From NCBI GenBank assembly GCA_051013385.1, contig CP143274.1, forward strand, positions 27,157 through 51,156: a DNA stretch of 24,000 nucleotides, written 5' to 3'. The DNA is from Phormidium sp. (lineage in GTDB: Bacteria; Cyanobacteriota; Cyanobacteriia; Cyanobacteriales; Aerosakkonemataceae). Below are positions 9,505 to 23,889 of the stretch, in pieces. The notes below the pieces were generated by a model that worked only from the letters and a program-made list of their open reading frames with translations, had not been told where the DNA came from and did not search any database. Made by a program: the position numbers and the translations under genes. Within the stretch, counting starts at the first letter, position 1; each line of letters starts with the position of its first letter.

Positions 9505-10209
9505 ATGAGAGTACTGCTAGTTGAAGATGAGCCAGACCTGGGTGCCGCAATTAAACGAACCTTAAATCAGCACAAGTATGTGGTTGACTGGGCGCTCGAC
9601 GGCACTGAAGCTTGGAACTACCTAGACAACCCGAAAACAAAGTATACGCTAGCTATTTTTGACTGGTTGATACCAGGAATATCAGGTTTGGAACTGCTGC
9701 GGCGATTGCGTGCTAGAAAAAATCCCCTTCCAGTGTTAATGCTTACAGCAAAAGACAGAATGGAAGATAAAATAACTGGTTTAGATGCGGGGGCAGATGA
9801 TTATCTGGTCAAGCCGTTTGGTATGGCGGAATTGCTAGCACGGTTGCGAGCTTTGCAAAGACGCTCGCCTCAAATCCAACCGGAACAACTTCATGTAGGT
9901 ACTCTCACTTTGGACTACGCCACTCGAAGTGTTTATCGTCTCGCTCACAACGATGAAAAGCAGGAAATTCCCCTCACTAATAAAGAATTTCAGCTACTCG
10001 AATATTTTATGAAACACCCTAACCAAATTGTCACCAGCGATCAAATCCGCAATCAGGTTTGGGAAATGAGCGCAGATGCGATCAGTAATGTGGTAGCCGC
10101 TCAAGTACGCTTGCTCAGACGCCAACTAGCATCGGTAGGAAGCGCTCATTTGATTGAAACTATTCACGGTACTGGCTACCGTTTCAATACATCTGATGAA
10201 CCAAAATAA
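9505..10209 (+). CDS. OmpR/PhoB-family response regulator (CopR/CusR-like)
   Basis: Receiver domain MRVLLVEDEPDLG...FDWLIPGISGLELLRRLR...PVLMLTAKD...GADDYLVKPF. Winged-helix output domain LTNKEFQLLEYFMKHPNQIVTSDQIRNQVW...IETIHGTGYRF. Confidence 0.9.
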   Translation: MRVLLVEDEPDLGAAIKRTLNQHKYVVDWALDGTEAWNYLDNPKTKYTLAIFDWLIPGISGLELLRRLRARKNPLPVLMLTAKDRMEDKITGLDAGADDYLVKPFGMAELLARLRALQRRSPQIQPEQLHVGTLTLDYATRSVYRLAHNDEKQEIPLTNKEFQLLEYFMKHPNQIVTSDQIRNQVWEMSADAISNVVAAQVRLLRRQLASVGSAHLIETIHGTGYRFNTSDEPK

Positions 10210-11494
10210 GTTATTCTCTCAAACTCGTCTGCGATTAGCGACTTCCTATGCCGTTGTGATGGGCTTTATCTTAGCTCTATGCGGTTTGGGTGTATATGAG
10301 GCGATTGTTCACGCTCACTGGCAAACTTTAGACCGAGAACTGGAAACGGTTGCAGGAACTTTACATGACAGTATTGAAAACAAACTCAAGCTACCCGGAC
10401 GTTTGGAACCGATAGAAGAGAAACTGTTTTCTGTCTCTCCCTCGAAACGCCACACTTTAGGAGCAATTTACCAAGGCAACTATTATGTGCGGTTGTTAGA
10501 TCGTTCCGAACGAATTGTTGCGGAAGCTGGTTCCGTACCCCTTGGTTTACCTGTCACATCACCTAAAGTGACTTGGCAGAATCTCAAGGATAGCGAAGGG
10601 AATCGTTATCATCAAATTTCTCTATCCCTGCATACCCAGGATAATCTTTCTTGGGGATATATGCAGATGGGGCGGAGTCTCAAAGACCTCGATGACTACC
10701 TCAAAACTGTTAAATTGGTATTGTTTTTTGGATTGCCGATCGCGATGATTTTGGTGGCTGGTTCTAGTTGGTGGCTGGCAGGATTGGCTATGCAACCAAT
10801 TTACCAATCTTATCGCCAGATTCAACAGTTTACAGCTGATGCTGCTCACGAGTTACGAACGCCTTTAGCTGCTACACAAGCGACCGTTGAATCAGCATTG
10901 GAAATGCCTCAGATGGATGAACTTGAGGTACGTGATATCTTAAGAACTATAGAGCGTCAAAATCGCAGGCTAATTCAGCTGGTTGCCGATTTGTTGTTGC
11001 TGGCACGCCTGGAGCGACAAGCTGTACCGATGCGACTGAAAGCTTGTTGCTTGAATGATTTGGTTGGCGATTTAATCGAGGAATTTGAAGCTTTGGCGAT
11101 CGCTAATGGTTTAACTCTGGCTGCTGATATTCGGGGGAACCACCCAGTAGAGGTAGTGGGTGACGAAGAGCAACTGTATCGCTTGGTTTCTAATTTGATG
11201 GTGAATGCCATCCAGTATACTCCTGCCGGAGGGAAGGTAATAGTGGTTTTATACCGCAGCGATCGCTATGCTGCGATCGAAGTTCAAGATACTGGTATTG
11301 GGATTGCACCCACCGAACAAAAGCGGATTTTCGATCGCTTTTATCGAGTTAATACCGATCGTTCTCGCAGTACAGGTGGGTCAGGTTTAGGATTAGCAAT
11401 TGCTCAAGCTATTGTTCAGGCACATGGAGGCGATCTACAAGTACAAAGCGAATTGAGCAAAGGTAGTACTTTTACGATTAGTCTACTAGTTTGA
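10196..11494 (+). CDS. Sensor histidine kinase, two TM helices with a periplasmic loop (CopS/CusS-like)
   Basis: The likely start ATG 10196 (MNQNKLFSQTRLRLATSY...) overlaps the regulator's stop by 14 nt. H-box FTADAAHELRTPLA, N-box LVSNLMVNAIQYT, G1 VQDTGIGI, G2 GGSGLGLAIAQ. The TM helices are VVMGFILALCGLGVY and LVLFFGLPIAMILVAGSSWWLAGLA. Confidence 0.9.
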   Translation: MNQNKLFSQTRLRLATSYAVVMGFILALCGLGVYEAIVHAHWQTLDRELETVAGTLHDSIENKLKLPGRLEPIEEKLFSVSPSKRHTLGAIYQGNYYVRLLDRSERIVAEAGSVPLGLPVTSPKVTWQNLKDSEGNRYHQISLSLHTQDNLSWGYMQMGRSLKDLDDYLKTVKLVLFFGLPIAMILVAGSSWWLAGLAMQPIYQSYRQIQQFTADAAHELRTPLAATQATVESALEMPQMDELEVRDILRTIERQNRRLIQLVADLLLLARLERQAVPMRLKACCLNDLVGDLIEEFEALAIANGLTLAADIRGNHPVEVVGDEEQLYRLVSNLMVNAIQYTPAGGKVIVVLYRSDRYAAIEVQDTGIGIAPTEQKRIFDRFYRVNTDRSRSTGGSGLGLAIAQAIVQAHGGDLQVQSELSKGSTFTISLLV

Positions 11495-11772: not shown

Positions 11773-13698
11773 CTAAAATTTTTCGCTCTTCATATTGGCA
11801 AAATGGTCTTGTAATAGTTTGTGGAAGAATTGATAGCGACCCCCAATTTTTATGATAAATAAGCGTTCTTCTGCATAATGGAGAAAGCGAGCGTAGTTCC
11901 AAGGTATGTAACCATTGCGCCAAAGCAAGAATCGCAACAAAAAATGTTGAAGACAAGCCATTCCACCTGTTAATAGTGCTATCGTTGGTACTACTGTCGC
12001 TCCAGTAATTAGTGTGGAAAAAGCTATTTTATCTGTCAAAATAATTGTTAATCCGAATCCCAAACAACTTATTAGTATAAATATTAATGTGATGCGTGTT
12101 GAATAAAAAATATCTTGATTGGGAGCTTTTCTTTGTTTGATTTCTAGCCGCTCACTCGTGAAAGCTAAATTACCTAACAAAACTAAACTAAATATGCATC
12201 CGAAAATTAATCTGGGAATTAATTGCGTATTTACTCCAAATGCCAAACTTAAAATTAATACACTCACTCCGTAACCTAAAAATAATTTATAGAGCTTTAC
12301 TTGAGGAAATTTAAAAGTCTCAATTGGTGTGATTTGCTTATACAAGTATTTAAAAGGAAATGATGCTACTATAGAGCCGATTACAAGTCCAATAATATCC
12401 GAAAATGACAACTGTTGTGTAATGGTAGGCAAGACGGTGGTTAAAGAAAAGATTAATATAATAATTATTAAAAGAATAATATTATAAATTCTTAAATCAG
12501 TTGGCTTTAACCAATTTGGTTGCATCTTTTCAATTAAAAATTCAGTTTGAGACTCTCTTTGTAACTGTTGCGCTAACCAAATAAGCCAAAGTCTGGTTTG
12601 ATGAGAGCTAGGAAACTTTTGTTTAATGTATGCTTTACTATCAATGTCCCGGCTCAACATTCGTCCTACGTAGCTATCAAGCAAATATTGAATTCGGTCT
12701 TCTACAGACGTTAGCTTCTGCCATTGTTCAAAAGATATTTCTTCATAGGCTAGAATGGAAACATTAAGCAGCAAAGGATTTCTAACTAACGGTAATAGAT
12801 TGGAGTTGTTGCTAATACTTTGCCAAAAGTAGGTATGGCTAATATTAGCTAAGTACTCCTGAAGTTGAGAGTTAGTTAAGGATTTTAAGCTGATGGAGTT
12901 GCTGAGTTCAAGGCGAGTATCATAATTTTCATATTCACCTAAGCGGCTACAAACAACTAGATGTTTAGGACGGTATTCTCCCTTCATTAGCTCGTTAATT
13001 GCCTGCACGCAAAGTTCTTGACGAGTTGATTGTAGTTCATCCAAACCATCCAATAGTGGTATAATTCGTTGATTCTTTAGCCATTCTCCGATCAACCCCT
13101 TTAAGGGTTTAAACTGTAATTCGATTGTAGTTACCAACCAATCAGCTATAGTTTGGCGATCGTCCCTCCAAGATGAAAGGTTGCACACCCAAGGAATTGG
13201 ATAATTAGGATCGGCTTCAGCACGACTAATCAGAGTTTCAGCTAGTTCTAACAGAGTAGTAGTCTTTCCCGCTCCTGGCGCACCCAGGATTAACAATCTA
13301 CCTGCAATTTCTTCTAAGTCAAAGATTTCAATAACGTTAGTATTCGATGGTAAAAGAAAGGGAGGTTTTTCGCCGATCTTAACTTCAGTATTCCAAAGCT
13401 GCTTTACCTGCTGAGGTTGTAACTCCTTAACCAAGTTTATCGGCTCAGTATAAAGTAGAGATTTCTTTAGCCGATCGCTAACCATTTGCTTCATTTCCTC
13501 TAAGAGGAATTGTTCTTTACGCGATCGAACTAAATTGTTTCCTTTTGCAAACTGCTGACCCAGAAAAATATTATTATTATAGATATCGCCGCCTATTTGA
13601 TTAGCATAAACATTTGTTGCATCTACAATACCGCCCGCAAATTGAGAACCTCTTAGGTCATGATTAGAAACTTTTTTAGGATCTGGCGCTTCAGACAT
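11773..13698 (-). CDS. NACHT-family P-loop NTPase with an N-terminal G/N/Q-rich motif and a C-terminal polytopic membrane domain
   Basis: Walker A is LILGAPGAGKTTTLLELA and Walker B is RIIPLLDGLDEL. The C-terminal ~230 aa contain at least 6 hydrophobic helices, including NIILLIIIILIFSLTTVL, IIGLVIGSIVASF, LGYGVSVLILSLAFGV, LIFGCIFSLVLLGNLAF, LIFILISCLGFGLTIIL and TGATVVPTIALLTGGMA. I prefer ATG 13698 (MSEAPDPKKVSNHDLRGSQFAGGIVDA...). The listed GTG 13773 would overlap the upstream gene. Confidence 0.8.
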   Translation of the reverse strand: MSEAPDPKKVSNHDLRGSQFAGGIVDATNVYANQIGGDIYNNNIFLGQQFAKGNNLVRSRKEQFLLEEMKQMVSDRLKKSLLYTEPINLVKELQPQQVKQLWNTEVKIGEKPPFLLPSNTNVIEIFDLEEIAGRLLILGAPGAGKTTTLLELAETLISRAEADPNYPIPWVCNLSSWRDDRQTIADWLVTTIELQFKPLKGLIGEWLKNQRIIPLLDGLDELQSTRQELCVQAINELMKGEYRPKHLVVCSRLGEYENYDTRLELSNSISLKSLTNSQLQEYLANISHTYFWQSISNNSNLLPLVRNPLLLNVSILAYEEISFEQWQKLTSVEDRIQYLLDSYVGRMLSRDIDSKAYIKQKFPSSHQTRLWLIWLAQQLQRESQTEFLIEKMQPNWLKPTDLRIYNIILLIIIILIFSLTTVLPTITQQLSFSDIIGLVIGSIVASFPFKYLYKQITPIETFKFPQVKLYKLFLGYGVSVLILSLAFGVNTQLIPRLIFGCIFSLVLLGNLAFTSERLEIKQRKAPNQDIFYSTRITLIFILISCLGFGLTIILTDKIAFSTLITGATVVPTIALLTGGMACLQHFLLRFLLWRNGYIPWNYARFLHYAEERLFIIKIGGRYQFFHKLLQDHFANMKSEKF

Positions 13699-13744
13699 AC
13701 ATTTAGCAAAAGATTGTAGATAGGTTAATCTAATCTGAAAATCT

Positions 13745-15513
13745 CTAGGGAGCGGGGTTGTCGATGTTACCACCTATGTGTTGGGAATGAACTATCTCGG
13801 CATCTACAATTCCACCAGCTATTTGAGAGTGTTGTAGGTCGTAATTAGAGGATTTAACCACAGCTTTTGCCTCTACAGTGATGGGCTTATTAGCCAATAT
13901 CTTAACAATTTCCGTGAGATTTGCATTTTGCTGACGATGAGTAGCTATCTGTTCATCCTTAGCTTCTAACTGGTATCTATATTTTTCTTCTAAGGCTTTT
14001 AATTGCAGTTCGTATTCTTGCTTGAGGTATTTCTCTATTTCTGCCTTATTTGCATTAAAAGGAACATTAACACGAATGATAAAAGCACCATCATTCTTGT
14101 TTTCAAGAGCTTGAATAGATAGCTCCTCACTACCACACTTAACTTGCAGCTTTTGAAATGAATTAAGGAATGCCTGCCAATCAATGCCGTTACGGAAAAC
14201 TAGATCGACTGTTGCTACTGCTTTTTGGAATAATTTAGTAAACTCTCCTGAAGCAAAGTTTCCACTACTAGGGCGGCGTTCTTGTTCTCTTTCTTGAAGA
14301 TAAACATAGTCACAAATCACTCCATTCAACTGGGTGGTACTATTAATATTCCAATCTTGAATGCAGGCTCCAGTTAATGTTGCTTGCCGAAAGGTACTAC
14401 CCATTACTAGAGCCGTAGATAAATTGGCCTGAGTGAGATTAGCATTACACAAGTTGCATTCTCTAAGATCGGCTTCTGCCAGATTAGCTTTAGCTAGATT
14501 AGTGTTTGCCAATATTGCGTTACTCAAAGATGCTTTCCGAAGGTCTGCTTTACTGAAGTTTGCTCCACTGAGGTCTGCCTCCTCTAGTAAAGTCGCCACA
14601 AGTAAGGATTCAACTAACTGTGCATCTCTGAGATCGGCTTTTGTAAGATACGCCGCTGTGAGGTTAGCTTGATTTAAAGAAGCCAATATAAGGGATGATT
14701 CCCACATTTGTGCGCTAACGAGAATTGCTTCTGTAAGATTAGCTCGATCGAGGTTGCACTTGTTGAGAATTGCCCCCTTCAGGTTGGCTTTGTACAAAAC
14801 GGCATTGCTGAGATTAGCTTGGGTGAGGTTCGTTATAGTAAGGAATGCGCCACTGAGATCTGCTCCTGTTAAGTCTGCTCCTGTTAAGTCTGTCCTTGTC
14901 AAGTTTGCTTGGCGAAAGTTTACTCCACTGAGATTAGCTTCTTGAAGATTAACCAGACAGAGATTTGCTCCACAAAAATTGGCTTCCGTAAAGCGTGCGC
15001 CGCGAAGTTCAGCAATGCTGAGGTTAGCTCCCTGAAAATTTGCTCTGCTAAGGTTAGCTCGATTCAGGATGGCCATTCCTAACTCTGCTCCCCTGAGATC
15101 TGCCTCACTCAAATTAGCTTTCTTGAAGTTAGCATTTCCCATATCTGCTTTCTGGAGATATGCTCCACTGAGATTAGCTTTGCTAAAATCTGCCTCCGTG
15201 AGTTTGGCTTCAGTGAAGTTAGTTTCTTTTAAGTAAGCATTTTGGAAGTTAGTTCTATCAAGGTCTGCTCGACGGAAGTTGGCTCTGCTAAGATTTGCCC
15301 CATTAAACTTTGCCCATTTGACAATAGCCCTGCTAAAATCGATTCCACAGAGGTCTGTATTGCTAATATCAGCACTTTTAAAGTTAGTTCCATCCAAGGA
15401 AGCGCCATTAAGTTTTATCCTACTAAGCTTGGCACTCCGAAAGTCAGCGCCCCTAAGATTAGCATTCGAGAGGTCAGCACCATTTAGGGTGACTATGCCA
15501 AGGTCTGTTTGGC
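13745..15513 (-). CDS. Pentapeptide-repeat protein, main (3') portion; the 5' end is separated by an antisense group II intron
   Basis: There are about 65 consecutive A(D/N)LxX pentads (ANLSRANFRRADLDRTNFQN...). A ~190-aa non-repeat domain follows (CIQDWNINSTTQLNGVICDYVYLQ...). The C-terminus is SSNYDLQHSQIAGGIVDAEIVHSQHIGGNIDNPAP*. Upstream of the listed TTG 15397 the frame stays open and pentapeptide-like (QTDLGIVTLNGADLSNANLRGADFRSAKLSRIKLNGASL) as far as the intron boundary at 15513. Confidence 0.85.
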
Positions 15514-16061
15514 GTGCGATTCGTTGTAGCCGAATCAGTGGAAATAATCCACGAAATAACGCTACTCACAACCGTTTAGAGGTTGTGAAACTCTCAAGAT
15601 GATGAGGGTGCAAGCCCCTCCCATCAGGTAAGGATGTGACTCCCAATCTAGCCACAGCGACCAGACTCGGAATTCTGGAGACTGAAGCTGGCAGTAGGGC
15701 GCAATCAGAGCTTGACCGAAAGCACACTGGCGCTAGGGGAGTTCCCAAGGTGAAACAGAGCCTAAAAAAGCAGCTTAAGGCCGAAACCGGACGGAAAAGA
15801 ATAACCCCCCGGATTTCACTAGAGTAAAAACCCGCTAGCTTATGCTAAAGAGACTAGCCTTACCAAGGGTTTCTAGTAGCTGAAGTGGCTACGCCTAAAG
15901 GAACAAGACAATCACTTGAGGGAACGAAGAAAAACGAATTTAGGGTCTTGGGAAAGGTCGAACCCCAGGTAGGCGAGACGAGACGCAGAAACCCCTAGAT
16001 TCGGGTAGGATTCAGCGTAATTGCTGAAAGGCAATCAGAGTAAACACTACAGGAGTAGAGC

Positions 16062-17564
16062 ATGATTGGGCGCAGTCTTAGTGCTAGCGAATTTTGGAAG
16101 AAATTACCTTGGAAGAAGTTTCGACGTAATCTATTCCGCCTGCAAGTGAGGGTTTACAAAGCTATTAGAGCCAATGACCTGCGTAAAGCTAAGTCATTAA
16201 TGAAGCTAATCCTGAAGGCCAGAGCAGCAAGATTACTGGCAATCCGTCAAGTAACACAACTCAATGCAGGGAAGAAAACCCCCGGTATCGACGGCAAAGC
16301 GTCCCTGACACATCAGGAACGCTTAGAGTTGAGTACACAACTCAAGGGTAATGTTAACACCTGGAGACACCAAGGGCTGAGAGAAATTCCCATACCTAAG
16401 AAAGATGGGTCAACCCGGATACTGAAAGTCCCCACTATAGGCGATAGAGCTTGGCAATGCCTAGTGAAATACGCCATAGAACCTGCACATGAGGCTACAT
16501 TCCATGAAAGAAGCTATGGGTTTAGACCAAGTAGAGCAGCACACGACGCTCAGAAATTCTTGTTTCTAAATCTAAGCTCCAAAGTAAACGGAAACATCAA
16601 GAGAGTCATCGAACTAGATATCGAGAAATGCTTTGACCGAATAAGTCACACCGCCATAATGGACAAACTCATAGCCCCATCGGGCATCCGCAACGGTATT
16701 TTCCGGTGCCTAAAATCAGGAGTCAACCCAGGGTTCCCAGAACAGGGAACGCCCCAAGGCGGAGTAGTTAGCCCACTGCTAGCGAACATTGCATTAAACG
16801 GTATCGAAAAGATACACCAATCAATAAGATACGCCGACGATATGGTATTCATACTGAAACCAAAAGATGACGCTCAAAAGATACTTGAGGAAATCAGTCA
16901 GTTCCTTGCTCAAAGAGGTATGAAGATTAGTGAAAAGAAGACAAAAATAACCGCAGCGACAGATGGATTTGACTTTCTAGGATGGCACTTCAAAGTGCAA
17001 AAGAACGGAAAGTTTCGGAGTCAGCCTTCAACGGAAAACTTCAAAAAGTTCCGAGGTAAAGTCAAGAAAATCGTCAATAACTCGAATTATGGGGCAAAGG
17101 TAAAAGCCGAAAAGCTTGCACCTATTGTCAGAGGTTGGAGAAACTACCACCAGTTCTGTAAGTTGGATGGCAACAGATTCAGTTTATCGTCACTCCGCGA
17201 AAGAACTTGGCGAGTATTCAACAAAGAAAAGAAGCTTAACCGATACCAGGTAAAAGAACTGGTCAACAAAGCATTCCCGGCTGTCCCCTACCACGAAAAC
17301 AAATTCATAAATGTGAAAGGGGGTAAGTCACCTTTCGATGGCGATATCCTGTACTGGGCAAAGCGTAACAGCAATTTATACGACGGTACAACCTCAAAGA
17401 TGCTCAAAAAGCAGAACCATACTTGTGGACATTGTGGGCTTCTCTTTATCGGAGAAGAAAAGGTGCATCTACACCACATCGACGGTAATCATAGCAACGG
17501 GAAGGCTAACAATCTGATGGTTGTCCACGAAAGCTGTCACGACTACATCCACATGAGCAATTAA
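16062..17564 (+). CDS. Group II intron reverse transcriptase/maturase with a C-terminal HNH endonuclease domain
   Basis: RT blocks are TPGIDGKASL, IPIPKKDGSTRILKVPTIGDRAWQ, SYGFRPSRAAHDA, IELDIEKCFDRISH, GTPQGGVVSPLLANIAL and the YADD motif (IRYADDMVFI). The maturase X region has GWRNYH. The HNH region is CGHCG...HLHHIDGNHSNGKANNLMVVHESCHDYIH. Confidence 0.95.
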   Translation: MIGRSLSASEFWKKLPWKKFRRNLFRLQVRVYKAIRANDLRKAKSLMKLILKARAARLLAIRQVTQLNAGKKTPGIDGKASLTHQERLELSTQLKGNVNTWRHQGLREIPIPKKDGSTRILKVPTIGDRAWQCLVKYAIEPAHEATFHERSYGFRPSRAAHDAQKFLFLNLSSKVNGNIKRVIELDIEKCFDRISHTAIMDKLIAPSGIRNGIFRCLKSGVNPGFPEQGTPQGGVVSPLLANIALNGIEKIHQSIRYADDMVFILKPKDDAQKILEEISQFLAQRGMKISEKKTKITAATDGFDFLGWHFKVQKNGKFRSQPSTENFKKFRGKVKKIVNNSNYGAKVKAEKLAPIVRGWRNYHQFCKLDGNRFSLSSLRERTWRVFNKEKKLNRYQVKELVNKAFPAVPYHENKFINVKGGKSPFDGDILYWAKRNSNLYDGTTSKMLKKQNHTCGHCGLLFIGEEKVHLHHIDGNHSNGKANNLMVVHESCHDYIHMSN

Positions 17565-17573
17565 GATTGTCGG

Positions 17574-17607
17574 GAGCCGGGTGCGGTGAAAGTCGCACGC
17601 CCGGAGC
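17574..17607 (+). ncRNA. Group II intron domain V-like hairpin
   Basis: GAGCCGGGUGCGGUGAAAGUCGCACGCCCGGAGC has the AGC triad, a GAAA tetraloop and a 2-nt AC bulge in the canonical places. In my hand fold, two basal pairs (A2/G33 and G3/A32) are non-Watson-Crick. Confidence 0.7.
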
Positions 17608-17650
17608 TAAATGAGAGGGGCGAGGAATAATACCCTCCCTCGACTCAACC

Positions 17651-17789
17651 TAAAGTCAATGCCGCGTAGGTTTAGATTGCTAAAGTCTGCTCCGCAAAGT
17701 TCGGGTTTAATTTCAGGATTGTTTAACCGCCACTCATTCCAAACCTCTATCCCCTGCTTGAGCAGAGCGAGATGTTTCTCATTGATCAT
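17651..17789 (-). pseudogene. 5' segment (46 codons plus 1 nt) of the pentapeptide-repeat gene, cut off by the intron
   Basis: ATG 17789 gives MINEKHLALLKQGIEVWNEWRLNNPEIKPELCGADFSNLNLRGIDF, a typical N-terminus of cyanobacterial pentapeptide proteins. The rest of the listed ORF (RLSRGRVLFLAPLI) is read-through into antisense intron sequence. Confidence 0.75.
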
Positions 17790-17835: not shown

Positions 17836-18010
17836 TTACTTGCCTTCTTTCCAACCTTCTAAACTTGCTATAAGGATATTAACTAAAGGATGGTTAATCA
17901 ACTCTTTAAAAGCTTCAATACTCCCTGCTTTTAGCGCTCTAACTACTCGCGCCTTGAGAGATGGATTACTCTCAATTTGCTCGATCGCTTCCGTTACAAC
18001 TGTCTGTTTC
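17836..18010 (-). pseudogene. 3' segment of the IS-split gene (C-terminal helical tail)
   Basis: The minus-strand translation from 18003 is TVVTEAIEQIESNPSLKARVVRALKAGSIEAFKELINHPLVNILIASLEGWKEGK*, with the stop at 17836-17838. It continues ...NTQEEKQT from 19341 in frame once the IS and one target-duplication copy are removed. Confidence 0.75.
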
Positions 18011-19340
18011 TTCAGGGGGCGACAACGAAGCTAGAGAGGTTGCTGGATCAGGGTTATAGCTCTCACACCTCGTTGATAAAATGATTTTTTATTGGGCGTA
18101 TAATTAAGCATTTCTTCTACCCATAACTGGCAGGAGTAAAAAGCGATTAGCCAATTTTCTCCATAAAGACCAATCCAAAAGTTGCTATGTCTCCTTCTAG
18201 TTCTACCGGGTTCTGTGAGACGACAGACATATTTTTGTTGCCCTTGTAGCTTAGTTCTTTTGCCTTGTAACCAAGCGGAAGTCATCGCCAAAGCAATTAA
18301 TAATATCAGGCTAATTAATCTATTAGGTGATGCTTGAGAAGCTTCCAGATTATAACCACCTGTTTTACAATCTTTAAACATAGCTTCGATGCCATAACGT
18401 TGACTATAAACACGAGTTGCACTTTTTAAATCCGGGAAATTAGTCAATAAATACCAAGGTTCTGATTCTTGTTTACTTTTATATCTTCTTTTCCAGGAAA
18501 CGGCTAAATTAAACCGATTAAAACCCTTCTTTTGCGTGAAACTAATATGCTCGTAGAATAAATGAATACCTGGTTGAATCGGGATACTGCTTAAAGGTTG
18601 GAATTTCTGTCTATAGGAGCGAAAAGTTGTGGTGCATTTTTGTCGAAGTACGAAGCCAAGATGCTGACGGTGCAGCCATTGCGCCAGTTCTATACTCTGA
18701 AACTCTCTATCCCCAATAATCACTAATTTATATTTACTTAATAATCGGATTACTGGACGTAATACTTGTTTTTGTTCAATTAAATTACAGGCTCCTTTTT
18801 TATCTAACAACATCCAAAATATGGGAAAAGCTCTTTTTTGATGAATCGCACTTACCATTAAAACATTATTTTTTTTCCATTGGGTTCTATCTAAAGCGAT
18901 AATTAGTTGACTCCCTGGTTTGATTTGACGAGATATCACTTCTTTAATAATCGGAAACCACAGCGCCAATACGCTTAATTTACTTAGGGCTAAAAATCGT
19001 TGAATATGACGACGGCGACTATTTTCTAGGATTGGTAATGGCAGGGTTGCTGCCAGTCTTTCTATCCTTACCTGCTTTTGAGATTGCAACAACCATACCA
19101 GCATCTTCAAGGTGATTAACTGTGCTGGCTTCAGATATCTTTCCAGATATTTTTGATAAAATGATGGCATCATTTTGAATGGGTCTTGTGAAATTAACTA
19201 GACCTTTCCTTATTTATCACAATTCAGGGCTTTTTTCTCTACGAGGAGCTTGTTGTCAATAAGCAGGGAATTTCTCGACCAGGTTTGTGCCGCAAAACCC
19301 TTTCCCTATATTGGTTTGGGGGCGCTTGTCGCCCCCTGAA
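18011..19340 (-). mobile_element. IS4-family insertion sequence, 1330 bp, complete
   Basis: Perfect 15-bp terminal inverted repeats: TTCAGGGGGCGACAA (18011-18025) and TTGTCGCCCCCTGAA (19326-19340). They are flanked by the 9-bp direct duplication GTCTGTTTC (18002-18010 and 19341-19349). A single transposase ORF lies inside. Confidence 0.9.
18031..19173 (-). CDS. IS4-family DDE transposase
   Basis: 380 aa. Candidate DDE residues lie in LIIALDRTQW, LVIIGDREF and YGIEAMFKDCK. YSQRYGIEAMFKDCK fits the IS4 Y-(2)-R-(3)-E-(6)-K signature. Confidence 0.85.
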   Translation of the reverse strand: MMPSFYQKYLERYLKPAQLITLKMLVWLLQSQKQVRIERLAATLPLPILENSRRRHIQRFLALSKLSVLALWFPIIKEVISRQIKPGSQLIIALDRTQWKKNNVLMVSAIHQKRAFPIFWMLLDKKGACNLIEQKQVLRPVIRLLSKYKLVIIGDREFQSIELAQWLHRQHLGFVLRQKCTTTFRSYRQKFQPLSSIPIQPGIHLFYEHISFTQKKGFNRFNLAVSWKRRYKSKQESEPWYLLTNFPDLKSATRVYSQRYGIEAMFKDCKTGGYNLEASQASPNRLISLILLIALAMTSAWLQGKRTKLQGQQKYVCRLTEPGRTRRRHSNFWIGLYGENWLIAFYSCQLWVEEMLNYTPNKKSFYQRGVRAITLIQQPL

Positions 19341-20212
19341 GTCTGTTTCTCTTCCTGGGTATTGGTCGGATACGTTTGCTCTAGTTGTTGCAATAGCTGC
19401 TGAATTTCTGCTGCGGCTTCAACTAAGTTTTGTCTTTGTTCGGGTGCGTAGTTGTTTATGTTACCGCCTATCTGCTGCGCGTGGACTGTCTCAGCATCTA
19501 CAATCCCTCCAGCAATTTGGGCATTTTGTAGATTAAAAGTTGAGGACTTTTTTGATTCTTGTGACATCATAATCTCCTTTTCGTTTATAATTCTAGCTAT
19601 TTTATCTGCTTTGACTTCTCCTTGGTTAACCCCAACCCCTATAGAAGATTTACTTTGATCGATGTTTGTTTCACTCACGGTTGCTCCCATATTGTTACCA
19701 TAATTATTACCGTAAATATGAATAGTTACCTTAGCATTTTCATCTTCCCCTAAACCTATTTGTAATTGAGCTAGATAGTTTTCAATATAATAAATAAATG
19801 GCTTAACCACATTATGATTAAATTTATTGACTTGCTCCTTTCGGTTTCCATTAAAAAAGTTTTCTACAGAGGCAGCTAACTCCCAATAACCGAGTTCGCT
19901 TTGGTAAAATTTTTGTAATCCATACTTAAGAAGTTGATATATAAAGCTTATTTCATCTGCTGCTGATTCATCAGGAATTTTAAATCCTGGCTTTAATGAA
20001 TTGTAAGCGCATATATATGAAATATCAAATTCTTTATTAGGGTTTTTTTGAATAAAAGAACTAATTACTAAATCGTTATCAATAAAACTAATAAACCTTT
20101 TGAGATTACTCATCCCAGTATCGGGTAATGATTGCATCAGACGGTTTCCATACATCCTAAAGTCAGATGATATTTTTCTTAATTCGTTTTTACTGATTTT
20201 TAGTTCATCCAT
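19256..20212 (-). CDS. Unknown protein carrying the shared G/N/Q motif, disrupted by the IS (native sequence only to 19341)
   Basis: A ~220-aa N-terminal domain with no motif I recognise is followed by SSTFNLQNAQIAGGIVDAETVHAQQIGGNINNYAPEQRQNLVEAAAEIQQLLQQLEQTYPTNTQEEKQT. The last 27 codons (SGGDKRPQ...FPAY*) are read from the IS end. Confidence 0.7.
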   Translation of the reverse strand: MDELKISKNELRKISSDFRMYGNRLMQSLPDTGMSNLKRFISFIDNDLVISSFIQKNPNKEFDISYICAYNSLKPGFKIPDESAADEISFIYQLLKYGLQKFYQSELGYWELAASVENFFNGNRKEQVNKFNHNVVKPFIYYIENYLAQLQIGLGEDENAKVTIHIYGNNYGNNMGATVSETNIDQSKSSIGVGVNQGEVKADKIARIINEKEIMMSQESKKSSTFNLQNAQIAGGIVDAETVHAQQIGGNINNYAPEQRQNLVEAAAEIQQLLQQLEQTYPTNTQEEKQTSGGDKRPQTNIGKGFCGTNLVEKFPAY

Positions 20213-20213
20213 A

Positions 20214-20663
20214 TTACCTTACTCCACAACAGGGACAATAAATACCTATTACCTTGTTCAAGAACCTAGTCTTAGCAGTTATTTGGCAGCAATTAAGATT
20301 AACTGTCTCTAGTTCTTCCTGTTCAAATAAAATTTTCTGTACTTCCATTTTTAGGGGTTTATCAGCCTTAAACTTTACATTTTTACTTCCTTTGAAGTTT
20401 CTCTCCAATTTTTTAACCCATTCGTTAATCATTGACTTGGCATAATTATTAGCAACAGTGTGAGCTTGTTCGATAACCTCATCTCTTAAAAAATGGCTAT
20501 GTTGATGCCGTAATCCGCAGTAAGGACAAAATATTTCAATAATATCTTCTCTTTCAAAGTCTGTTACTGTCAGTTTAAATCTATCCTCACAAAAAGGACA
20601 TTGGAGCGTAACAAACCCGTCGTTATCGCTGGGGATGGTTATTTGAAAAACTACGTCAGCCAT
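20214..20663 (-). CDS. Double zinc-ribbon-like small protein, function unknown
   Basis: 149 aa with Cys pairs CPFC...CPYC (N-terminal half) and CC...CPCC (C-terminal end). Its stop is 1 nt from the ATG of the next gene, which suggests co-translation. Confidence 0.6.
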   Translation of the reverse strand: MADVVFQITIPSDNDGFVTLQCPFCEDRFKLTVTDFEREDIIEIFCPYCGLRHQHSHFLRDEVIEQAHTVANNYAKSMINEWVKKLERNFKGSKNVKFKADKPLKMEVQKILFEQEELETVNLNCCQITAKTRFLNKVIGIYCPCCGVR

Positions 20664-20761: not shown

Positions 20762-20995
20762 TTAGTGCTTGGTATCTTTTGGCGGACAAGAATCGTTGCC
20801 GTAGCTATCTTTATCCCGGATTTTTCCATCTCTTCCGTGTATTACAACCTCCGTATGCTGGTTTTTGGCAATTTCTTTGGCCTTATCAATCGCTTCCTTT
20901 TGGGTAGCACATACTTTTGTCGCTTTAGTAGCGCCTTCTGATTTAACTTGCCATCCTTCGGGATGCGGGGTAACGTGTTGTGCTTTTTTAGCCAT
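20762..20995 (-). CDS. DUF2188-like small protein
   Basis: MAKKAQHVTPHPEGWQVKSEGATKATKVCATQKEAIDKAKEIAKNQHTEVVIHGRDGKIRDKDSYGNDSCPPKD matches the pattern I recall for DUF2188 (HV.P...GW.VK.EGa.ra......eAi..A...A......e..IHgrDG.Ir..dSYGnDp.PPkD). I prefer the ATG at 20995 over 21016. Confidence 0.6.
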   Translation of the reverse strand: MAKKAQHVTPHPEGWQVKSEGATKATKVCATQKEAIDKAKEIAKNQHTEVVIHGRDGKIRDKDSYGNDSCPPKDTKH

Positions 20996-21148
20996 AACCC
21001 TTTTGTATTGGTACATTTTGAGGCTAGCACAACGTTTTATAAGGTGTACGTTATAAAGTAGGTAAAATATTAAATATTTGTTAAAATATTAGATAAATGG
21101 GTGTATGTTACTAAACGATCGAGATCGCTACTACTAAGCGCTAGCACT

Positions 21149-22011: not shown

Positions 22012-23889
22012 TTAAAAGCATTTTAAGAAAGCGTCTATCTCAATTTCATTGAATGGTAAAAGCAATGTTGATTGGATAAAATCTCTAGTTTCACGCTTGA
22101 CATAACATGGCGATTGAAGGCAATCTAACAACAATTTATTAGCGTAGCAATATGCTCGTAACATTCCCCATTCTTGCTCGGTATCTAATTGCCAATCATA
22201 ATCAATATTGCGATATTTACGATTCAAGCCTTTAAGCTTATCACCCCAAGCACCACTATCATGCTTATACCAATGGTAATTTTCATCCCAATGATCGTAA
22301 ACCCCTTCTGGCAATTCTTCATCTAGGTTGATAAGTTCTTTCTGAAAATCTTGATTATCAGTCAATGCTATGGCTGAATATAACGCATCAGATAAGGTGT
22401 AAAAATTAGTATCGTCAATCGGATGCTTGTTATACATTTCATCAATTTCATAATCCTCATCTCCTTCATAAAGGCTAATAGATGTAAATTCCTCATTTTG
22501 AGGATTCTTGTTAGCAATGCGATTTAACAAAGATGCTTGAGCGCGAGCATGAGCCAAATTAAGGTCTAAAGCTAGATTTGGATCGTCAAGAGAAGCACGG
22601 AAATTTCCCATACCAAATCCTGAAGCACATCCTTCATAAAAACTTAACTGAATATGGGAATCTAAAGATTGTAATAGATCGCTCATCTCTAAAAATTCCC
22701 AAGTTGAATCGAGAGGAGAGTTTGTATTATCTAATATGTAGATACCCACAGCTAAACAAATGTAAAATGCTCTAATTGCATTAGGCTGATGAGAGCTAGA
22801 TATTTGACGAGACTTTTGACTAGCCCAAGTTAACAATTCTTGAATGGTTCTATTCTGTGCGGCGGCTAGATCGATTTGATATTTCATTGATAGCAAAAGC
22901 ACATCAGCACTTCTTAGCATCTCAGTAGTTAGCAAGAAAACTTCACGCCATTGTTTATAAAAAGCGTATTGGATTAAATTATTCAGAGCCGAATCGTTGA
23001 ATTCATTTGGATTAGCTTTTGATACAATCTCTTTGGCAGCGAAATACTCGTGAAAGGTTAAATGAGAAAATGAATAAACTTCTCTAGCTCGTTCTACTAA
23101 TAACCCATGCTGTGCCTCAATAGATTTTAATACAGCTTCGCTATCTAGCAATAAAGCTTCTGGAACTTGAGAAGATTCTGTCAAGTTCTTAATATAAGAA
23201 GCAATATATTCCTGCACATCCTGTTGTTTCCAAAAATGTTCCCCCTTCTCAAAAGTTGTTAAAGCTAAATAACTAAGTAAATCTTCTTTGCGCGGTACAG
23301 AGAGATGTTTATAAGCGTTATCACGTTCAATAATACGAGTAGCATCCCATTTCCTTAGAAGTGTATGAGTTGCCCTTTTGTATAACTCAGCACGACTATT
23401 AGGAAAGTCTCCAGCATCTTCAAATTCAATACATAACAAAGTTAACAGTAGTGGGTTATTAGCAAGTTCCTCGATTGATTTGTTCTTTTGGAGGTGTTCC
23501 ATAAACCGTTGGTCAGAATTACAGATATTATTTTTATATGAAAACCACTTACTGACAAAGGTTTGGATTTGTTCTCGATCAAAATCAGCAACTTCTACAT
23601 CTGTAAAATGCTCAAATGTATATTCCTTAGCTGCGATTCGGCAAGTCAGAATAAATTTGTTATTAGGAAACCTTTGAGAAATATCACGGATTTCTTTTAA
23701 GACGTGGCGATCGTATTCTTGCCGAACCTCATCCAATCCATCAAGCAATAATAGTATTCGTCCTAGCTCAAATAACCGAACTATTTGGTTATTGTCAATG
23801 TGGTTATTAGATAATTCCTTACCAATGTAATCGAGTAAACCTACAGCGCTTTGCGCTGTTATGAGGTACGATAAAATATCATTTTGTAG
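22012..23889 (-). pseudogene. Second NACHT-family NTPase, 5'-truncated (Walker A region missing)
   Basis: The minus frame is open from 23889: ...LLDYIGKELSNNHIDNNQIVRLFELGRILLLLDGLDEVRQEY (Walker B), then FILTCRIAAKEY and NNPLLLTLLCIEF. No GxxGxGK(S/T) lies upstream. Instead an oppositely oriented IS630-like transposase gene starts at 23899. Confidence 0.75.

Follow-up and report, generated by a model that had tools for sequence, protein, structure and literature searches.

A peptide of about 32 residues, rich in Gly, Asn and Gln, recurs on three neighbouring plasmid genes of a Phormidium sp. (contig CP143274.1, positions 27,157 to 51,156; we refer to this entire 24,000-nucleotide stretch as the window). 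Here, we describe this motif as a cognate adaptor, a role that we regard as very probable, between an NLR-like NTPase and the proteins encoded directly upstream of it. In the window, the motif ends a pentapeptide-repeat protein (PRP), opens the adjacent NACHT NTPase, whose six transmembrane (TM) helices lead us to call its family NACHT-TM, and lies within a third protein related to the defence candidate PDC-M14B; all copies are on the minus strand. The pairing is strict and matched by motif type, and it recurs across genera. The motif defines a new family of adaptors resembling bacterial amyloid signalling sequences (BASS), distinguished by partners that lack a Bell domain, by its frequent internal placement, and by an associated, uncharacterised tail domain.

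Motif-matched gene pairs in filamentous cyanobacteria

The PRP open reading frame (ORF) of the window (13745-15397) runs into the motif at its C-terminal end (KAVVKSSNYDLQHSQIAGGIVDAEIVHSQHIGGNIDNPAP, then the stop codon; SSNYDLQHSQIAGGIVDAEIVHSQHIGGNIDNPAP, then the stop codon), and 46 nt past this stop the NACHT gene starts with an ATG at 13698 and the N-terminus MSEAPDPKKVSNHDLRGSQFAGGIVDATNVYANQIGGDIYNN. No terminator-like site was found between the two genes. An initial annotation of the window had drawn attention to a motif shared by the C-terminus of one protein and the N-terminus of its neighbour, and this arrangement is confirmed. The third copy that it listed at 19451-19546 is present (SSTFNLQNAQIAGGIVDAETVHAQQIGGNINNYA, 19445-19546, residues 223-256, within the ORF 19256-20212), but is internal rather than terminal and belongs to the same operon. 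Pairwise, the three copies share 19, 24 and 18 of 34 aligned residues (53-71%), and their nucleotide identity is just 57-74%. Nucleotide differences at the first, second and third codon positions number 13/7/19, 6/4/17 (the closest pair) and 14/8/22 for the three copy pairs, with 7-11 synonymous codon differences per pair. Because the differences concentrate at third codon positions and include these synonymous changes, they indicate that the copies are old and have been maintained by selection on the peptide, as the annotation had argued in distinguishing them from a recent DNA repeat.

With a 32-column motif profile (A1), a search of 1.84 billion representative proteins returned 145 matching proteins at E<=1e-3, of which 51 reached E<=1e-10, and by this measure the similarity of the motif copies is far beyond chance. 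Rescoring of the 145 proteins yielded 139 motif occurrences. Of these, 78 lie at residues ~10-41, the position seen in the NACHT protein (this group includes many fragments); 23 close the protein at its extreme C-terminus, where endings such as NDA or TDNQEHPD are conserved; and 38 are internal, with either CHAT or a conserved, ~90-residue helical tail (QNLAEAAAEIQQLLQQLEQTYPT...GWQEAE) coming after the motif. The third copy in the window is internal and of the tail type, and the 38 internal occurrences bear out an earlier caveat that similar motifs might sit within single-chain proteins. Judged on named sources, with metagenomic matches set aside, the motif is restricted to filamentous cyanobacteria (Phormidium, Nostoc, Scytonema, Tolypothrix, Trichormus, Moorena, Lyngbya and Calothrix). 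Motif-only sequences match no Pfam model even at E<=10, the Pentapeptide and EAD models included; no NCBIfam model was found for motif or tail; profile searches of both against PDB sequences returned chance-level matches only; and a search of literature full text for motif strings found no relevant paper. Mapping to a known globular domain, which the initial annotation had named as grounds for refuting its reading, was thus not observed in Pfam, NCBIfam or the PDB.

Neighbour pairing was assessed in 80 loci of the NACHT-TM family, gathered with the NACHT family alignment at one genome per species, by comparing each NTPase N-terminal segment with all other ORFs in its own locus at a threshold of at least 37 bits. 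A match within the same locus was found for 22 of 82 segments, against a cross-locus rate of 2.2%. The matching gene is directly upstream and co-directional, at gaps of 9-96 nt, and the same motif type (A, C, D or others) stands on both genes. Within 1.37 Mb of related loci, strong matches to the motif profile occur only where the NTPase itself starts with the motif, always upstream and on the same strand. All eight independent motif-first NACHT-TM loci are paired in this way, compared to 0 of 77 other NACHT-TM loci (Fisher p=2e-11), which answers positively the proposal that such enrichment should be seen across genomes. These eight are the window and loci of Scytonema PCC 10023, S. hofmanni, Moorena, Nostocaceae CENA369, Tolypothrix PCC 7910, Trichormus variabilis and Nostoc NIES-2111; in a ninth locus, a PRP with a terminal motif is paired with an NB-ARC-like NTPase, so that nine of nine are paired. 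Genera other than Phormidium thus repeat the arrangement in which an NLR-like NTPase opens with a cognate motif that its upstream neighbour also carries.

The full order seen in the window, in which a protein with an internal motif and tail is followed by a PRP ending in the motif and then by a motif-first NACHT-TM protein, recurs in four loci (L084, L086, L088 and L090). Two loci (L084 and L087) have additional downstream genes that begin with the motif; their products are an AAA_35 ATPase, an nSTAND1-WD40 NTPase and an FGE-sulfatase protein, and several receptors or effectors in one locus may share one adaptor. An NB-ARC-like NTPase and a TIR protein likewise open with the motif (Table 1). 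Other motif types are matched between a NACHT-TM protein and its upstream gene in L005, L006, L009, L019, L021, L023, L027, L032, L036, L045, L047, L063 and L076, with NINTGGGNYNERIEGDYIQGN, VQISGGTVQGLTQQNTGTITQNF and GGVTIGNVSGGISGSIIAGGDV as examples; several of these types appear to be undescribed.

The paired proteins and how the motif might act

The NACHT-TM protein comprises, in order, the disordered motif, a helix at residues 60-83, a NACHT module, six TM helices and a conserved C-terminal end. The NACHT assignment made in the initial annotation stands (PF05729 E=3e-9, above the cut-off), with the Walker A (GAPGAGKTT, residue 139) and Walker B (LLDGLDE) motifs of a NACHT STAND NTPase, and the membrane domain that it proposed is borne out by six hydrophobic segments at residues 407-581, which appear as long helices in the AlphaFold2 (AF2) model. 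The protein is 100% identical to one encoded on a plasmid of a Phormidium sp. metagenome-assembled genome, and more than 2,000 relatives were found, most of them in Nostocales. Of its 120 closest homologues, 48 start with the motif at the same position (consensus V.NNDLRNAQFGGGFINAENVNAGRIGGDIWN), and among the remainder this slot can hold other short segments rich in Gly, Asn and Gln (NINTGGGNYNERIEGDYIQGN, QGNQNRVVQGN... or STFGSGQQAAIGNDNIQNQGNNN), such that at least five alternative short N-termini occur within a single NTPase family. Further occupants of the slot are true EAD domains (PF19954/PF19955), a transmembrane segment and a directly fused CHAT domain, with fused CHAT or EAD adaptors found in L048, L008 and L010. 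Some N-termini of the family (YNNYGRDQINV...) resemble the published BASS8. N-termini of the QGNxNxVVQGN type (P0024, P0025, P0036 and others) reach the Pfam threshold of PF21300, a grass antifreeze beta-roll (30.2 versus 30 bits), which hints that this type may form a beta-solenoid.

Motif-bearing partners possess a range of domains: pentapeptide repeats, CHAT (before or after the motif), TIR_2 with TRADD-N, cpYpsA-SLOG, EAD9 and PDC-M14B. A 149-codon ORF in L062 encodes a minimal partner of about 130 residues with only motif and tail, and in several partners motifs of different types stand in tandem. Most of the PDC-M14B family is without the motif and has another short segment (SSIGVGVNQGEI.AEKLAGTINE) before the same tail, so the motif behaves as a modular insert; in PDC-M14B it was gained in this lineage only. 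The tail of about 90 residues occurs at the C-terminus of many cyanobacterial proteins (P0152-P0322; in the window at 17836-18009 and 19342-19450), always preceded by at least one short Gly/Asn-rich motif. AF2 predicts it to be helical with a pLDDT of ~90 (partner P0297); when the model was compared with PDB structures by Foldseek, no match scored better than E=0.7, and no relative in Pfam or the PDB was found by sequence.

The initial annotation had placed a sensor-like domain on the non-NTPase partner; that this partner holds the sensor we now consider unlikely. Since the N-terminal slot of the NTPase can hold a fused CHAT domain (or an EAD) and the partners carry classic effectors (TIR, CHAT and SLOG), the partners are more plausibly effectors than sensors, and a role as sensor or anchor is likelier for the constant six-TM region. 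TM-bearing bacterial NACHT proteins of this kind are classified in the same way by Kibby et al.

Across 195 distinct instances of the motif, N (4.2x), G (2.1x), Q (1.8x) and I (1.5x) are over-represented, V stands at 1.0x, and K (0.24x), P (0.11x) and L (0.5x) are under-represented. BASS are reported to show enrichment of N, Q, G, V and I and depletion of K, P and L (Dyrka et al. 2020, bioRxiv 10.1101/2020.01.06.895854), and the composition of the motif is BASS-like. Short hydrophobic stretches (columns 6, 11, 15-16, 21, 26 and 30) are set apart by strongly conserved residues, namely Gly-Gly pairs (columns 13-14 and 27-28) and single Asn positions (columns 8, 17, 22 and 32), and an internal pseudo-repeat is visible at a 14-residue offset (NAQFGGG.IN and NAQRIGGDI.N). 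Copies on the NTPase side favour R7, R25 and D29, and copies on the partner side have Q or N in these columns; this replacement of charged residues would favour in-register stacking on the partner side. In AF2 models built with family alignments, the motif has a pLDDT below 50 (about 30-40) and no secondary structure, both in partner P0297 and in NACHT residues 1-55, and the domains adjoining it are predicted confidently.

We propose that the motif acts by amyloid-like templating, as a homotypic and type-specific adaptor of the BASS/HET-s kind, a mode of action in which our confidence is slightly better than even. At rest, the motif would be disordered on every protein that carries it. Triggering of the membrane-embedded NACHT NTPase would cause it to oligomerise, and its clustered N-terminal motifs would then fold into a stacked beta-arch core. 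This core would template the same fold in the motifs of the partners encoded upstream, which would be recruited, polymerised and activated. Such a pathway would entail direct contact between motifs, a cross-beta architecture for that contact, and signalling in the direction from NTPase to partners. Several observations weigh against templating. The disorder predicted by AF2 is equally expected of any peptide that folds upon binding; the motif often lies within the protein, flanked by domains (as in PRP-motif-CHAT or X-motif-tail proteins), which is less typical of BASS with Bell domains; each side carries one motif unit, whereas HET-s has two; and pentapeptide repeats are not, to our knowledge, an established executioner domain. 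We also considered co-evolution of cognate motif pairs, but motif identity is 52% within loci versus 47% between them, a difference too weak to support such a claim.

The principal alternative is a homotypic adaptor that is not an amyloid, in which motifs on the two proteins co-fold into a finite beta-sandwich or hairpin of fixed stoichiometry and tether effectors without propagating, as in the EAD principle. We consider this less probable than templating, though a serious contender. EADs follow an identical genomic logic (Kaur et al. 2020/2021), true EADs of PF19954/PF19955 occupy the same NACHT-TM slot, an EAD pair is found in L010, and both the frequent internal position of the motif and its predicted disorder fit an adaptor whose folding is coupled to binding. 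Known EADs, however, are globular domains of 60-100 residues, while the motif is a 32-residue segment with N/G/Q-rich, BASS-like composition and no EAD match, and the Q/N residues of partner-side copies at the R7, R25 and D29 columns point towards stacking.

Two further readings deny the motif an adaptor role, and both are improbable. It could be a processing, cleavage or degradation tag for a common protease such as the caspase-like CHAT partner, since CHAT is fused beside the motif in several partners and a disordered motif is accessible. Most motif loci, the window among them, encode no CHAT protease, and neither strict neighbour matching of differing motif types nor conservation over 32 residues with invariant glycines, which far exceeds the length of a cleavage site, is expected of a protease site. 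With a marginally smaller chance still, it could be a linker or oligomerisation element of cyanobacterial PRPs, present on the NACHT gene through coincidental shuffling, as the initial annotation had cautioned. The motif is common in PRPs and has hydrophobic residues at about every fifth position (columns 6, 11, 16, 21 and 26) in a repeat-like manner; yet it also occurs on repeat-free proteins (TIR, TRADD-N, CHAT, PDC-M14B and the small L062 protein), about 190 residues separate it from the repeats, and the neighbour association contradicts coincidence. We likewise rejected the motif as a degenerate pentapeptide-repeat coil: motif-only sequences do not fit the tandem A(D/N)LXX profile, and only the five-residue hydrophobic spacing is in common. 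Finally, although the three copies lie within 6 kb, the notion that they are functionless products of recent DNA duplication or gene conversion is refuted by their low nucleotide identity and third-position bias, and by conservation of the motif across genera.

A more speculative extension, which we hold to be rather doubtful, is that the motif is one barcode in a combinatorial amyloid wiring of filamentous cyanobacteria. In such a network, at least six interchangeable motifs would link a pool of effectors (CHAT, TIR, SLOG, pentapeptide repeats and PDC-M14B) to several classes of NTPases and other N-terminal carriers (NACHT-TM, NB-ARC, AAA_35, nSTAND1-WD40 and the FGE-sulfatase protein), partners with tandem motifs would serve as hubs, and the ~90-residue tail would act as an executioner or relay domain of a new type under amyloid control, its motif preceding its helices in an order opposite to that of HeLo/Bell. 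If motif-based templating is correct, the few known bacterial amyloid-signalling motifs would gain a widespread cyanobacterial family, and such motifs would be extended to partners without a Bell domain, including PRPs, CHAT and TIR proteins and PDC-M14, an uncharacterised defence candidate. It would also suggest a function for many cyanobacterial PRPs and for a common unannotated helical tail domain, and provide a specific hypothesis for how PDC-M14 is coupled to an NLR-like switch. The NACHT-TM family, a single scaffold with swappable motifs that are each matched to neighbours, offers a natural test system for the specificity of templated signalling.

The operon in the window and its disruption

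Two of the three motif-bearing genes in the window are interrupted by mobile elements (Table 1). The PRP gene is split by a complete group II intron, whose 5' end reads GTGCG and whose domain V-VI region matches Rfam RF00029 at 17572-17649; the intron lies antisense to the PRP gene and therefore cannot be spliced from its mRNA. Excising 15513-17650 in silico restores a 635-residue PRP ORF. The PRP reading frame noted in the initial annotation thus does end in the motif, but represents just the 3' part of an intron-split gene. The PDC-M14B-like gene is split within its helical tail by an IS4-family element; its assignment rests on an intact, 93%-identical homologue (P0260; PADLOC PDC-M14B E=9e-42). 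Because these elements interrupt two partners, the motif system is probably not functional in this window.

Table 1. Coordinates of motif copies, genes and mobile elements in the window, and of further motif-headed genes elsewhere (HMM, hidden Markov model)
Feature	Coordinates	Strand	Sequence or evidence
Motif copy, extreme C-terminus of PRP partner	13757..13852	-	SSNYDLQHSQIAGGIVDAEIVHSQHIGGNIDN, then PAP and stop (13745-13747); HMM score 58.0
Motif copy, residues 10-41 of NACHT-TM NTPase	13576..13671	-	VSNHDLRGSQFAGGIVDATNVYANQIGGDIYN; HMM score 62.2
Third motif copy, internal in PDC-M14B-like partner, residues 225-256	19451..19546	-	HMM score 57.4
NACHT-TM NTPase gene, 641 aa	11773..13698	-	Pfam NACHT E=3e-9; AF2 model; hydropathy
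PRP partner gene, 3' part: repeats, ~190-residue coiled-coil region, motif	13745..15512	-	Pfam Pentapeptide E=8e-83
PRP partner gene, 5' part	17651..17789	-	MINEKHLALLKQGIEVWNEWRLNNPEIKPELCGADFSNLNLRGIDF...; joins 3' part once intron removed
Group II intron with reverse transcriptase/maturase ORF (16062-17564), antisense in PRP gene	15513..17650	+	TIGR04416 E=2e-83; Rfam RF00029
Third partner gene, 5' part: PDC-M14B-like domain, motif, start of helical tail	19342..20212	-	PADLOC PDC-M14B via homologue P0260
Third partner gene, 3' part: rest of helical tail	17836..18009	-	KQTVVTEAIEQIESNPSLKARV...LEGWKEGK, then stop; collinear with L088/L090
IS4-family insertion sequence, transposase 18031-19173	18010..19341	-	16-nt perfect inverted repeats; TCTGTTT target duplication
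CxxC zinc-ribbon-like protein, PDC-M14A candidate, first gene of array	20214..20663	-	PADLOC PDC-M14A E=7e-55
Further motif-headed genes	L084 7995-9416; L087 7882-8940, 9086-12937; L092 5967-7529; P0324 (protein)		

Two syntenic contigs from related strains (L088 and L090, 94-97% identical) lack both insertions. Their intact array encodes a 149-residue CxxC protein, a protein of 344 or 345 residues, a PRP of 455 or 636 residues and a 641-residue NACHT protein, and in L088 the stop of PDC-M14A is one base from the start of the next gene. The ancestral operon, still intact in these strains, is thus PDC-M14A, a PDC-M14B domain with motif and helical tail, a PRP with repeats, coiled coil and terminal motif, and the motif-first NACHT protein with six TM helices. 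The PRP varies in length among these near-identical strains (455, 635 and 636 residues; 14938-15438 of the window compared with L088 and L090), and in L090 the segment preceding its motif (13849-14150) has diverged, with motif and NACHT gene conserved.

The surrounding region looks like a plasmid-borne defence island. An 84-residue DUF2188 protein (20762-21016, minus strand) matches the single-gene defence candidate PDC-S16 (PADLOC, E=1e-37), and a second NACHT gene, with an NCH2 domain, lies at 22012-23843 (minus strand). Synteny with its intact 828-residue NCH2-NACHT homologue in L088, which has a helix-turn-helix N-terminus, ends at 23843, and the 5' part of the gene may be missing or displaced in the window, which would make a third disruption. 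On the other side, a response regulator and a HisKA histidine kinase (9505-11494, plus strand) adjoin the motif-first NACHT gene and are conserved in L088, with RND-transporter-like genes further on.

Comparison with known systems

The initial annotation likened the window to BASS and to fungal HET-s pairs. As to layout and composition, this reading stands: as in BASS pairs, the same motif of about 20-40 residues is found at an NTPase N-terminus and on an adjacent co-linear gene. Membership in BASS1-10 does not, as none of the strings IGGNI, IGGDI, GGLVNA, GGFINA, GGIVDA and NYNERI occurs in the complete Table S2 of Dyrka et al. 2020, and the listed sequences of BASS4, 5, 7, 8, 9 and 10 differ from the motif. 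The motif resembles BASS1-10 in being short and N/Q/G-rich, in pairing an NTPase N-terminus with an upstream co-linear gene across a small gap, and in its occurrence in filamentous cyanobacteria (Dyrka et al. 2020). It differs in that its partners lack the HeLo-like Bell executioner domain, in that it is often internal before a helical tail (terminal in 23 and internal in 38 of 139 occurrences), and in that two partners stand ahead of one NTPase; the NTPase itself has six TM helices, in contrast to the TPR or WD repeats of BASS1-10 NTPases.

An experimentally supported parallel is BASS11 Bab/Agp of E. coli, which signals by amyloid templating in phage defence and is also found with TIR, CHAT, NACHT and NB-ARC (Ibarlosa et al. 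2024, bioRxiv 10.1101/2024.11.07.622273). Both systems are adjacent gene pairs of defence islands with a short common motif and links to these four domains. By its description rather than by sequence comparison, BASS11 is set apart by another motif of about 23 residues, a TPR-GreA/B-C-PIN receptor and a Bell-like executioner; no Bab-like 109-residue protein with a C-terminal motif was found among the profile matches.

Fungal HET-S carries two 21-residue pseudo-repeats and NWD2 carries one. The system described here shares with HET-S/NWD2 a motif that adjoins an effector domain in one protein and opens the NACHT NLR encoded by the neighbouring gene, together with the logic of templated activation that we propose. 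It lacks the two-versus-one repeats of the HET-s-type (HRAM) motif, both sides aligning over a single 32-column unit, and has a non-HeLo effector and no sequence similarity to the fungal pair.

EADs provide a counterpart in genomic logic: a small non-catalytic module stands at the N-terminus of an NTPase and on adjacent effector genes (Kaur, Burroughs, Iyer and Aravind 2020/2021, PMC7159879, PMC8195603). The same principle applies to the motif, which also resembles EAD1-12 in that a partner can carry several adaptor modules and in its occurrence in multicellular prokaryotes. EAD1-12 are globular, and many are Death-like, whereas the motif spans 32 residues, is predicted to be disordered and matches no EAD model.

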